64,000 nucleotides of DNA from the IMG/VR virus record IMGVR_UViG_3300042393_000497, positions 3,783 through 67,782 of that record. The stretch is one strand, 5' to 3'. A model generated the notes under the pieces. The model worked only from the letters and a program-made list of their open reading frames with translations, ran no database searches and was not told where the DNA came from. Of this stretch, positions 3,589-18,468 are shown piece after piece. The position numbers and the translations under genes were made by a program. Every line of letters starts with the position of its first letter. The first letter of the stretch is position 1. The stretch comes from a virus (Duplodnaviria; Caudoviricetes).

Positions 3589-3788
3589 GAAAAAGAATTA
3601 TCAAAACAGAAAGAGTAGATGTGAATGCAGTTATTAACGACATAGAGCATCGTATAGACACGAAAAAGCAATTAGTAAAGATTACTATGAAGCAAGAAAA
3701 TTGCGGCTTTGGAGAGGCAAAAAGTAAAATTCAGGATTCAGTAAAATGGAACTGCATTAAAAAAGAAGTTAAACTATTAAATAATTAA
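3585..3788 (+). CDS. early hypothetical protein
   Basis: ORF track; tightly packed in the operon. Confidence 0.65.
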   Translation: MRKRIIKTERVDVNAVINDIEHRIDTKKQLVKITMKQENCGFGEAKSKIQDSVKWNCIKKEVKLLNN

Positions 3789-8732: not shown

Positions 8733-8750
8733 ATGGGAAGATATTAATAA
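8733..8750 (+). pseudogene. orphan 5' stub (MGRY-stop) of gene 9265-9624
   Basis: ATG GGA AGA TAT TAA encodes the same first four residues as ATG GGG CGC TAT TAT at 9265. Confidence 0.7.
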
Positions 8751-8766
8751 ATACCATATTGTTTTG

Positions 8767-8774
8767 TATCTTTG
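8767..8774 (+). promoter_or_regulatory. -7 promoter box carried by the HNH cassette
   Basis: TATCTTTG 18 nt before ATG 8792. Confidence 0.6.
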
Positions 8775-8791
8775 TAAAAAAATATAAAGTT

Positions 8792-9262
8792 ATGATAGAA
8801 ATAGAAAAAGATTATTTTGTTACTGAAGATGGCAAAGTATTTAGTAAAAGAAAGTTTAATAAACTTACTGAATTAAAGTTATCAAAAACAGGTCACAAAG
8901 GTTATGTTAAAGTTAGGATAAATAAAAAAGATTATTTTGTTCATAGACTTGTAGCTAAAGCATATTTAACAAACCTATTTGATAAAAAAGTTGTAAATCA
9001 TATAAACGGAATAAAACACGACAATCGTGTGCAAAATTTAGAATGGTGTACAAGAAGTGAAAATTCAAAACACGCATACGACATTGGTTTACATAAACCA
9101 CATACGGGATTAAAAGATAAAGGAAATAATAAATTCTACAAAGAGTGGAATAATTTAATTAAACAAGGAATATCAATGAGAAAAATTTCAAAACAATATG
9201 GCGTTAGTCATAGAACAATCGGGAACGTAGTAAAAAAGTTTAACAATCTAAAAATCAATTAG
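8792..9262 (+). mobile_element. free-standing HNH homing endonuclease
   Basis: FVHRLVAKAY, VNHINGIKHDNRVQNLEWCTRSEN (HNH_3 type), C-terminal HTH; likely start 8792. Confidence 0.9.
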
Positions 9263-9264
9263 TT

Positions 9265-9624
9265 ATGGGGCGCTATTATTCAGGAGACATCGAAGGAAAA
9301 TTTTGGTTTGGTTTGCAATCAAGTGTTGCAGCAGATAGGTTTGGAGTATCACACTACCAACCTGAATATGTAATGTATCGTTATACAAGTGATGACCTAG
9401 TAAATGTTGTTAATGAAATAAATAACATTGTAGATAATCTAGGAGATAAACTACAAGTAATTGAAAAGTTATTTGAAGATAAAATGGGATACACCGATCA
9501 AATGTTAGAAGAAGCAGGCATAACAAGAGATGAATTAAGCGAGTATGCTGACTTAGGATTAGGTATTCAAATTAGGGATTATATAATTGAAAATGGAGAA
9601 TGCACATTCGATGCAGAACTATAA
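9265..9624 (+). CDS. conserved phage protein (MGRYYSGDIEGKFWFG)
   Basis: ORF track; target gene of the upstream HNH insertion. Confidence 0.8.
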   Translation: MGRYYSGDIEGKFWFGLQSSVAADRFGVSHYQPEYVMYRYTSDDLVNVVNEINNIVDNLGDKLQVIEKLFEDKMGYTDQMLEEAGITRDELSEYADLGLGIQIRDYIIENGECTFDAEL

Positions 9625-16364: not shown

Positions 16365-16901
16365 ATGGAAGATAAATTTTTAGAATTGAATAGGAAAGTA
16401 AAGAATTTAATTCTTTTAAATACAGGAGTTGATATTAATATCGATAGTAGAAAAAGAAACATAGTTGAATTAAGAGCATTGTATTTTACAATCATAAAGA
16501 GTATAGATAAGAAACAATCATTGGAGTATTTAGGTAGCACAGTAAATAGAGACCATGCATCAGTACTGCACAATTTGAAAAAATATCCTACACACGAAAA
16601 GTATAATCCAATACTTAGACCTTTAAGATATAAAATAACTTCTCTATTTGTTATTGATGATGAAATAGAAGATGACCAGGATACTTGTTTTAAGCAAATT
16701 GATTTCTTAAAGAAATTAAATTCAAAACTAATTGATAGATTAAATAATAAAAACGAAGAAGAGATTGCAAAAAAAGAAGGGTATGAAGTTATAAATAATT
16801 TAAATCAACTTTTATTAGACACTAAAGGAACTGAACTTCATGACTTAATGATATTCAGATTAGAATCACTTTATAATATGAACAGTAAAATAAAAAAATA
16901 A
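16365..16901 (+). CDS. protein with DnaA C-terminal (domain IV)-like HTH
   Basis: SRKRNIVELRAL..SLEYLGSTVNRDHASVLH. Confidence 0.75.
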   Translation: MEDKFLELNRKVKNLILLNTGVDINIDSRKRNIVELRALYFTIIKSIDKKQSLEYLGSTVNRDHASVLHNLKKYPTHEKYNPILRPLRYKITSLFVIDDEIEDDQDTCFKQIDFLKKLNSKLIDRLNNKNEEEIAKKEGYEVINNLNQLLLDTKGTELHDLMIFRLESLYNMNSKIKK

Positions 16902-16903
16902 TT

Positions 16904-16957
16904 ATGAATGTATTATCATTATTTGATGGTACTATGGACAATATTTTGTATCTTTGA
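16904..16957 (+). pseudogene. orphan 5' stub of the methyltransferase (MNVLSLFDG...)
   Basis: 17-codon mini-ORF whose residues NVLSLFDG are identical to the methyltransferase motif I at 17419-17442. Confidence 0.85.
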
Positions 16958-16960
16958 ATT

Positions 16961-17419
16961 ATGGAAATAAAATTAGTACAATTCGATGAAAAATATTCTG
17001 TTGATGACAATGGAAATGTATTCAGTTTAAAAGGAAATAAAAAAAAATTAACTGGTAAAGTATCAAAAAATGGATATAGAACATTGCTAATTAATCACAA
17101 TAATAAAAGGCATTATTTTTTGGAACATAGATTAATATTATTAGCATTTGATAATAACATTAATAATAAAAGAACTGTGAATCATAAAGATGGCAATAAA
17201 TTAAATAATGTATTAAGTAATCTTGAATGGGCAACTGATTCTGAGAATCAAAATCACGCTATAGATAATGGCCTTATTAATCATAAAATAAACTATAAAA
17301 TTGCAGAGCAAATAAGAAATGATACAGGTTCTTACCGTGAACTAGCTATTAAATATGGTTTGGGTAAAACAAATATAGGATATATAAAATTAAATAAAAG
17401 ATGGAAAATAAAAAAATAA
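16961..17419 (+). mobile_element. free-standing HNH homing endonuclease
   Basis: EHRLILLAF, VNHKDGNKLNNVLSNLEWATDSEN; TATCTTTG at 16949. Confidence 0.9.
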
Positions 17420-18468
17420 ATGTACTATCTCTCTTCGATGGGATGTCTTCAGGTCAAATAGCTCTTGAAAGAGCAGGTATTAAAGTAGACAACTACTATG
17501 CAAGTGAAATTGATAAGTATGCTATTACAGTTACAATGGCAAACTATCCAAACACTAAACAACTTGGTAGTGTTGTAGATGTTAAAGGAAGTGATTTACC
17601 AAAGATTGATTTGCTGTTGGGTGGATCTCCTTGTCAATCATTCTCTTTTGCAGGCAAACGTAAAGGTATGAGTACAAAATGTGAAACAGAAATTCTTACA
17701 CTAGAACACTATCTTGAATTGAAAGAAGAAGGATATGAGTTTGAAGGTCAGTCTTATTTGTTTTGGGAGTATATGAGATTACTTAATGAAGTTAAGCCAA
17801 AGTATTTTCTTCTTGAGAATGTAATGATGGGTAAGAAGTGGCAATCAATACTAACTAAAGCAATTGGTGTTGAGCCTATAGTAATTAATAGCTCTCTTGT
17901 TTCTGCTCAGAATCGTAAGAGATTGTATTGGACTAACATTGGATTAGAATCTAATGGATTGTTTGGAGATTTAAAAAGTATAATAGAACAGCCAGTAGAT
18001 AAAGGAATACTTCTTAAAGATATTTTAGAAGATGAGGTAGATGAGAAATACTTTTTAAGTGAGAAAAGATTTGAAACAATGCTTAACGGAGACAGAAGCA
18101 GAGTGTCAGATATGAAAGATAAAAAATGTGGTTCACTCTTAGCTAATCAACATAAACAATCATCTGATATGATTACAATAGTTCACAATACAATGCCTCG
18201 CTCTTCTAAGACTGGCAAAGGAGGAACTGGTCATTTGACTAGAGATGATGGAAAGACTTATTGTTTAGATACAAAACAATCTAATGCAGTAGAAATTTGT
18301 AAATCTAAGATTAGAAGACTAACTCCAATAGAATGCGAGAGATTACAAACGGTTAAAGACAACTATACAAATCATGTTAGTAATTCTCAGCGTTATAAAA
18401 TGCTTGGAAATGGTTGGACAATTTCTGTGATTTCTCATATATTATCTTACATGAATGGCAAAAATTAA
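17401..18468 (+). CDS. C5 cytosine DNA methyltransferase
   Basis: LSLFDG, GGSPCQ, ENV, QNRKRLYW, RRLTPIECERLQ, YKMLGNGW. Confidence 0.95.
   Translation: MENKKINVLSLFDGMSSGQIALERAGIKVDNYYASEIDKYAITVTMANYPNTKQLGSVVDVKGSDLPKIDLLLGGSPCQSFSFAGKRKGMSTKCETEILTLEHYLELKEEGYEFEGQSYLFWEYMRLLNEVKPKYFLLENVMMGKKWQSILTKAIGVEPIVINSSLVSAQNRKRLYWTNIGLESNGLFGDLKSIIEQPVDKGILLKDILEDEVDEKYFLSEKRFETMLNGDRSRVSDMKDKKCGSLLANQHKQSSDMITIVHNTMPRSSKTGKGGTGHLTRDDGKTYCLDTKQSNAVEICKSKIRRLTPIECERLQTVKDNYTNHVSNSQRYKMLGNGWTISVISHILSYMNGKN

Follow-up and report, generated by a model that had tools for sequence, protein, structure and literature searches.

A putative homing-endonuclease cassette that replaces the 5' end of a C5-cytosine methyltransferase gene in a tailed phage

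Phage T4 contains free-standing homing endonuclease genes (HEGs) such as those for SegF, SegG and MobE, which show intronless homing (PMC2988022; PMC2790892). The T4-type MobA insert deletes 55-75 bases of a topoisomerase gene and carries a diverged homologous replacement in a new N-terminal extension of the downstream open reading frame (ORF); the whole element, consisting of mobA, the gene 60 N-terminal extension and a bypass cassette, sits in the gene for the topoisomerase large subunit (Manning and Atkins, bioRxiv 10.1101/2022.08.31.505936). In fungal mitochondria, so-called mORFs make gene hybrids, as in atp6 of Allomyces macrogynus and in atp6, atp9, cox2 and nad3 of Glomus (PMC3630166). 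Here we describe a locus in a stretch of 64,000 nucleotides from a virus of the Caudoviricetes (positions 3,783 to 67,782 of IMG/VR record IMGVR_UViG_3300042393_000497; the whole stretch is called the window below), in which an HNH endonuclease gene lies in the first codons of a C5-cytosine DNA methyltransferase (MTase) gene. We propose that positions 16930-17460 are a mobile, intron-free homing-endonuclease cassette that replaces the head of the MTase gene and homes by break repair, and we give this reading a probability of about 0.8.

At this locus the MTase gene begins twice (Table 1). The ATG at 16904, which follows the stop codon of the upstream gene (16899-16901) after two bases, opens a short ORF whose residues 1-9 are the N-terminus of a C5-cytosine MTase. 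The live MTase starts at an ATG (17401) within the 3' end of the HNH gene, in a different reading frame and with an overlap of 18 bases. Positions 16907-16930 and 17419-17442 (24 bases each) encode the same eight residues and are alike in 18 of the 24 bases; all six differences are synonymous, two of them in the first position of leucine codons and four in third positions. A preliminary description of the window, made from its sequence, had claimed an abandoned MTase start upstream of the HNH gene, a repeat of eight residues with six synonymous changes in 24 nucleotides and a new ATG inside the HNH 3' end, and all of this is indeed present. It had also let the stub end at GATGG; this end is not clean, and decayed MTase codons, common to other cassette copies, continue at 16930-16944. 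The live ORF is kept whole by the carried copy, which replaces codons 2-15 (17419-17460) and differs near the junction by a Cys to Ser and a Gln to Ile change; it matches PF00145 (E 3e-46) over model positions 2-320 of 324 and PHROG 116 (E 3e-69).

The nucleotide identity of the two copies is not rare in itself: about 0.7 matches of 18/24 are expected by chance per shuffled 64-kb window, and the real window has three others. The weight therefore rests on the eight of eight in-frame residues, on the position flanking the HNH gene and on the comparative data. The residues of the stub are the start of nearly all of 80 MTase relatives from viral contigs, where they are directly followed by M-S-C-G-Q, and a blastn search of the GenBank phage collection found the start of the dcm gene of Synechococcus phage S-CBS2 to be identical to the stub in 25 of 26 bases. 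A target-site duplication was ruled out as the origin of the repeat: 6 of the 24 sites are different between the copies, and the downstream copy resembles other cassettes, not the resident allele.

Close metagenomic relatives of the window's backbone were found in a large protein collection searched with the upstream gene, and a search of IMG/VR with the same gene found no relatives. L300 has an upstream protein 97% identical to that of the window and contains the cassette, which is 98-100% identical. L294 and L297-299 (upstream protein identities of 89% and 70%, respectively) are free of the HNH gene, and in them 2 to 5 bases separate the same upstream gene from the start of the MTase. At the nucleotide level the upstream gene of the window is 88-99% identical to L294 and 94-100% identical to L300. 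The preliminary description had predicted that HNH-free relatives should match the stub, and this is what we found: the first 26 MTase bases of L294 and L297-299 are identical to the stub in 26 of 26 positions and do not match the live copy. The window and L294 share 94-100% of the MTase sequence from about base 50 on and only 72% over the first 50 bases, which bears out the claim that the cassette brings a replacement 5' end; the displaced native end thus matches the element-free relatives better than the carried copy does. In effect, the window is an L294-like phage with bases 27-45 of the gene replaced by 16930-17460. L300 regains the L294 spelling within 17461-17478 and the window a few bases later, which locates the right-hand crossover. 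Within one backbone the same site is therefore polymorphic, occupied in the window and L300 and empty in L294 and L297-299. That the HNH-free alleles are deletion products was ruled out, since L294 has the canonical motif spelling and not that of the cassette.

A second pair of occupied and empty sites (L204 and L215) comes from an SNF2-type backbone, found in L202 and L204 with the cassette and in L215 with an HNH-free MTase in the same slot. The L204 stub can be aligned with the start of the L215 gene up to and including the C-G-Q codons; the stub has a 5-base deletion and then continues into the conserved linker. This alignment puts the ancestral junction at about base 44 of the MTase gene. 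The insertion is thus in the motif I region, as had been proposed, but it follows the C-G-Q codons and lies about 18 bases past GATGG, not at GATGG. With this junction, 16930-16944 is the decayed rest of an older stub that came with the cassette, and the left crossover with the resident gene was inside the first 26 bases. The MTase of L204 is 68% identical to that of L215 in the first 45 bases and 80-93% identical afterwards, target-recognition region included; compared with L202, the identity is 93% over the first 45 bases and drops to 28-50% in the target-recognition region, and the HNH genes of L202 and L204 are 85% identical to each other. The slot itself was also seen in a larger group of phages of about 65 kb (L214-L291), in which an SNF2 helicase gene is followed by VRR_NUC. 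The junction between the two is variable and empty in most genomes; it contains a C5-MTase in some, an MTase with the HNH cassette in L202-L205 and unrelated HNH genes in others.

The HNH protein has about 45 relatives with identities of 48-90%. The genomic context was sampled for 11 relatives (P0002, P0004, P0005, P0007, P0011, P0012, P0017 and P0025 from protein look-ups, L084 and L085 from IMG/VR, and L300 from the relatives of the upstream gene), and in all 11 a PF00145 MTase follows the HNH gene immediately and overlaps with it. The unit of stub, linker, HNH gene and new start was found in at least eight otherwise unrelated metagenomic phage backbones, and the same architecture recurs in independent assemblies from ENA, JGI, Logan and IMG/VR. 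The K-R-W codons of the HNH gene, which are near-invariant, provide the ATG of the MTase, an arrangement that is alike in every relative examined. The genes upstream of the cassette vary and encode a DnaB-primase, an SNF2 helicase, DUF3987, hypothetical proteins or, in the window, a DnaA-like protein. Between the window and L202 the identity is about 40%, which is random, up to the ATG of the stub, jumps to 85% exactly there, and the similarity stops at the MTase stop codon.

The linker 16930-16960 is conserved in L202, L204 and L300 and has a longer form in L201, L210, L293 and L208. Intact stubs were found in the window and in L300, L202, L204, L210, L293 and L201. The stub ORF stops 3 bases ahead of the HNH ATG also in L202 and L204, and in L201 and L084 the stub and the HNH gene are joined in one reading frame. 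Degraded forms range from an internal deletion (L208) to heavy decay with loss of the ATG (L206, L212), and L085 has no stub at all.

The 5' segment of the MTase gene travels with the HNH gene. The carried head of the window is 90% identical to that of L202 and L204, whose backbones are unrelated, and in ten HNH-containing loci the first 42 MTase bases follow the HNH clade and neither the MTase body nor the backbone. The flank is thus co-converted: the first 45-60 bases follow the HNH lineage and the remainder follows the backbone. In a tree of the catalytic domain, calculated with the first 22 residues left out, the nine HNH-containing rows require nine changes, of which well-supported branches force six or more, and L205 with the HNH gene is sister to the HNH-free L215 with 99% support. 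Scattered rows together with an HNH-linked head are the pattern of repeated invasion of different resident alleles, not of one moving HNH-MTase unit. As far as genome comparison can establish it, the insertion, its borders, its presence and absence, its spread and the joint travel of the 5' segment with the HNH gene are demonstrated.

The sequence of the HNH protein matches Pfam HNH_3 (E 1.4e-7, 31.5 bits with a cutoff of 24.8) and PHROG 59 (E 5e-39), and its match to Pfam NUMOD4 (22.5 bits) is just under the cutoff of 23.4. Residues H75, N87, N96 and H99 are invariant in 45 relatives with identities down to about 41%. A profile of these relatives matches PDB 1U3E, the structure of I-HmuI, with E 1e-20, and the HNH motifs align. 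The AlphaFold2 model has a pLDDT of 91.6, and 1u3e was its sole significant Foldseek match (E 3e-8, TM 0.64, 155 columns, full length). The predicted structure shows the three-part layout of I-HmuI with an N-terminal NUMOD4-like beta-sheet, the HNH core and a C-terminal helical DNA-binding region. Judged by sequence and predicted fold, the protein is an I-HmuI homologue. The homing endonuclease I-HmuI nicks its DNA target and has a long recognition site. A search of 16600-17800 against Rfam at E values up to 1 found no family match, the stub ORF stops, and the HNH and MTase genes are separate, overlapping ORFs, in agreement with the earlier claim of an intron-less, splicing-free element. Since no Rfam family matched and the MTase has its own ATG, we regard the enzyme as a structural homologue of I-HmuI and not as an intron endonuclease.

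How could such an element move? We propose that a cassette of about 530 bases (16930-17460) landed in the first 15 codons of a resident C5-MTase gene, which encode the S-adenosylmethionine-binding motif I. It consists of the decayed older stub, the promoter-like motif, the HNH gene, the ATG in the K-R-W codons with the leader, and the respelled codons 2-15. The first 26 bases of the resident gene stay upstream as a stub, and the full enzyme is read from the start codon of the cassette without splicing. The HNH protein would nick or cut MTase alleles that have no HNH gene, at the M-S-C-G-Q codons or next to them, and during co-infection the break would be repaired from the HNH-containing genome, with the stub as left and the MTase body as right homology arm. 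Both copies in the HNH-containing genome would escape cutting, the stub by indels or decay and the live copy by respelling and residue changes.

The candidate target comes from the distribution of changes at the start of the gene. Among 88 HNH-free copies, the third residue after F-D-G is Cys in 87, and 71 have MSCGQ. Motif variants absent from these 88 copies are present in 9 of 11 HNH-containing lineages: MSSGQ in the clade of the window, CSGGR, CSGGH and CSCGR in a second clade, and in addition MGCIF and MSCCQ. This short segment is also where the stubs are damaged: it has a 5-base deletion or a 6-base insertion or is scrambled, so that in HNH-containing genomes both copies are without the same approximately 15 bases of canonical sequence. 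We read this segment, which encodes M-S-C-G-Q, as the probable core of the HNH recognition site. The proposal of a recoded, immune head has to be modified accordingly in one point: the carried head is respelled, but the most consistent HNH-linked changes are at the MSCGQ codons, residue changes included, and not at the six synonymous sites.

The cassette might also bring its own promoter. A 12-mer of the type TTTG-TAnnTTTG lies in front of the HNH gene and is conserved in the AT-rich members of the cassette family. With at most one mismatch it occurs at nine sites in the window compared with 1.5 expected, and 14 of 67 long ORFs have TAnnTTTG in the 60 bases that precede them, compared with about three expected. 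TAnnTTTG is what we take to be the Bacteroidota -7 promoter consensus; the enrichment would fit promoters of the Bacteroidota type and hints at the host group. The position of the stub ORF, which ends 3 bases before the HNH gene or is fused to it, suggests translational coupling of the HNH gene to the native MTase start.

Several observations speak against parts of this proposal. L085 keeps the canonical MSCGQ despite its HNH gene, and in L201 and L210 the first eight codons are spelled almost as in the stub; these spellings indicate that the six synonymous differences may be allele history and not selected immunity. The target site has been deduced solely from the positions that are altered in both copies. 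A left arm of 26 bases is short for homologous repair, and ordinary mosaic recombination could be the route between unrelated backbones. Finally, the promoter-like motif ends 4 bases ahead of the HNH ATG; at such a distance the mRNA would be leaderless, or the motif has a role other than that of a promoter.

The alternative that survives best accepts the cassette as real and lets it spread by ordinary mosaic recombination, illegitimate or through short homology, with an HNH protein that is inactive or cuts another site, and with stub and carried head as by-products of one old accident. Stubs decayed to different degrees, in L212 and L206 up to the loss of the ATG, a short left homology and the high mosaicism of the genomes at these loci, for instance the varied cargo of the SNF2-VRR_NUC slot, are all what one would expect from such a history. 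However, the invariant catalytic residues argue for purifying selection on the enzyme, and the insertion is at the same codon position in at least eight backbones and many MTase alleles. The recombination borders also fall at the stub and at the first 45-60 bases of the gene, where break-initiated conversion would be expected to place them, and in both copies the changes cluster in one short segment. We consider this alternative unlikely.

It might also be thought that the HNH and MTase genes form a restriction-modification-like or addiction module which moves as a unit, the stub being a remnant of the displaced resident MTase; nuclease-plus-methylase pairs are a common selfish unit, and here the overlap of the two genes was seen in every case and co-translation is probable. 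Against this, the MTase body of the window is 94-100% identical to that of the HNH-free L294 of the same backbone, the recognition regions of L202 and L204 differ far more (28-50% identity) than their HNH genes (85%), the HNH-containing rows are scattered on the MTase tree, and the HNH fold is that of a homing nickase with a long site. This makes a co-moving module very improbable. A chance repeat (18/24 identity arises about once per window), an assembly artefact or a self-splicing intron or intein around the HNH gene is for practical purposes refuted by eight of eight in-frame residues at the canonical N-terminus of the family, by the recurrence of the architecture in independent assemblies and by the lack of an Rfam match, the stop codon between stub ORF and HNH gene and the separate ATG of the live MTase.

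A homing cassette with a replacement head therefore remains our preferred reading, and the interpretation given in the preliminary description is supported overall, with refined borders. Going further, we tentatively consider a set of additional possibilities, which as a whole we find less convincing than the cassette itself. The stub could be a selected part of the element, serving as a portable left arm into any phage with an MTase of this family and as a native start that feeds the HNH gene by termination-reinitiation or fusion. The pressure from the endonuclease could drive the changes in motif I (Cys to Ser, Met to Cys, an inserted Arg). In addition, replacement of gene heads could be a widespread, as yet unnamed strategy, with two cassettes in this genome.

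The second candidate cassette of the window has a stub of four codons followed by a stop, the same 12-mer (8763-8774) and an HNH gene for 167 amino acids. Its target gene belongs to PHROG 33624, to which no function is assigned, and starts with the four residues of the stub in a rare spelling: among 80 relatives the stub type is the commonest with 22, and the live type was found in 2. The same HNH gene, stub and linker are present in L321 and L301 in other contexts.

If the proposed mechanism is correct, homing endonucleases would have a third route into genes beside introns and inteins, by bringing a spare gene head with a start codon. Comparing near-isogenic phages with and without the cassette (the window and L300 with L294) places the borders, the tract of co-conversion and the likely target to within about 20 bases. 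With 152 amino acids the enzyme is short, its site is probably long and its predicted target lies in a very conserved coding sequence; it may serve as a nickase scaffold. For genome annotation, short orphan ORFs upstream of an HNH gene that repeat the N-terminus of the next gene should be seen as footprints of insertions and not as genes. Such cassettes may also account for odd motif I variants in phage C5-methyltransferases.

The searches for further copies and footprints gave mixed results. The first 80 MTase relatives fetched had no HNH gene directly upstream. A scan of viral contigs for the DNA pattern of HNH end and MTase start returned only L085 and L086, the pattern being too strict. 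In the GenBank phage collection no cultured phage with a close HNH relative was found (the best match was 42% identical), and blastn of this collection gave MTase similarity only. N-terminal extensions of HNH-free MTases, for instance in L032 and L024, showed nothing convincing as footprints of lost cassettes.

Some members of the family deserve a separate description. In L085 (2974-3456) the HNH protein is 45% identical and its gene overlaps the MTase start in the same way; this stubless locus may be an ancestral free-standing arrangement or the result of complete stub loss. In the GC-rich L084 (3432-4103) the MTase frame downstream of the HNH gene loses similarity after about 130 residues, and the target gene may be broken. 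L063 (IMGVR_UViG_3300042478_002320) contains five C5-MTase genes of the family in a row, at 941, 1753, 2940, 4007 and 5260, all with canonical starts. The tblastn spans of the HNH-free MTases in L031, L034, L035, L039, L043, L048 and L032 are 1400-1570 bases compared with about 1050, which suggests insertions in the MTase body; these could be recognition domains of greater size or mobile inserts of another kind. In the window itself, the target-recognition region of the MTase (about 18063-18330) is shorter than and unrelated to that of L294 and L300 (12-46% identity with large gaps). The enzymes have 355 amino acids in the window, 446 in L294 and more than 457 in L300 and are otherwise near-identical; this looks like a specificity domain that was swapped or deleted between near-isogenic phages. 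The product of the upstream gene matches Pfam Bac_DnaA_C with 28.5 bits, under the cutoff.

Table 1. Positions of the MTase locus, of the promoter-like motif and of the second candidate cassette, in coordinates of the window.
Feature	Position	Strand	Remarks
Upstream resident gene, DnaA C-terminal-like helix-turn-helix protein	16365..16901	+	ORF; backbone marker, outside the mobile unit
Native MTase start (stub): original ATG and 23 bases	16904..16929	+	left behind by the insertion; matches HNH-free relatives
Stub ORF, 17 codons	16904..16957	+	TGA (16955-16957) 3 bases ahead of the HNH ATG
Cassette left end: decayed remnant of MTase codons 10-15, then promoter-like motif	16930..16960	+	conserved linker
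Relic of the C-G-Q codons	16935-16941	+	inside the decayed remnant 16930-16944
Promoter-like motif, TAnnTTTG type, 12-mer	16945-16956	+	sequence motif
HNH homing-endonuclease gene, I-HmuI-like, 152 amino acids	16961..17419	+	Pfam HNH_3, PHROG 59, profile and fold matches
New MTase ATG and 6-codon leader from the cassette	17401..17418	+	overlaps the HNH 3' end, other frame
Carried replacement copy of MTase codons 2-15	17419..17460	+	respelled; 72% to L294, 90% to L202/L204
Right-hand crossover zone, cassette / resident MTase body	17461..17478	+	return to L294 spelling in L300
Live C5-cytosine DNA methyltransferase ORF, 355 amino acids	17401..18468	+	PF00145, PHROG 116
12-mer sites	1122, 8763, 16945, 19867, 42442, 45876, 48313, 57971, 60961		at most 1 mismatch
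Second HNH cassette	8734-9276		stub 8734-8748, HNH 8759-9262, target gene 9265-9624

Our literature searches turned up no account of a phage HEG by which the 5' end of a methyltransferase gene is duplicated. The closest parallel within phages is the MobA element, which is reportedly also the subject of the work of Bonocora et al. (2011, PNAS), cited in the preprint of Manning and Atkins. Like the window cassette, MobA is an intron-free HNH cassette inside a phage coding sequence and carries a diverged copy of the piece of the ORF that was removed. This copy, termed 'homR', holds the nick site, and MobA also supplies a new start for the downstream frame, as the window cassette does; repeated independent insertions have been mapped with the parental genomes in both cases. 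The outcome is different: with MobA the gene becomes two functional subunits, the displaced piece is lost and immunity requires a 50-base ribosomal bypass, whereas in the window the insertion is so close to the 5' end that the upstream piece is left as a stub, a full-length enzyme is read from the ATG of the cassette with no bypass or frameshift, and the target is motif I of a C5-MTase.

The preliminary description had named mitochondrial elements as precedents. The relation it saw to them, that of a mirror image, holds, but with T4 MobA a phage precedent for a carried replacement segment exists. The fungal mORFs resemble the window cassette in being an intron-free endonuclease ORF in a gene with a foreign, diverged copy of the displaced end; the native end is an untranslated relic that matches element-free relatives, and the differences between the copies are mostly synonymous. 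They replace the 3' end, often in frame with the host gene, whereas the window cassette replaces the 5' end and the start codon. Moreover, the mORF enzymes are LAGLIDADG or GIY-YIG endonucleases of an organelle and the window enzyme is an HNH endonuclease of a phage.

The Seg and Mob genes of T4 share with the window cassette a HEG without intron or intein, presence or absence among related phages and flanking markers that are co-converted from the donor. The genes on either side of them are intact, their cut site is often hundreds of bases distant and no gene end is duplicated, whereas the HEG in the window lies in an ancestral coding sequence with a duplicated, respelled head. I-HmuI of Bacillus phage SPO1 (PDB 1U3E) and the window enzyme have the fold, the domain order over the full length and the HNH motif residues in common; the gene for I-HmuI lies in a group I intron within a DNA polymerase gene, whereas the window enzyme is encoded without an intron and its predicted target is an MTase gene.

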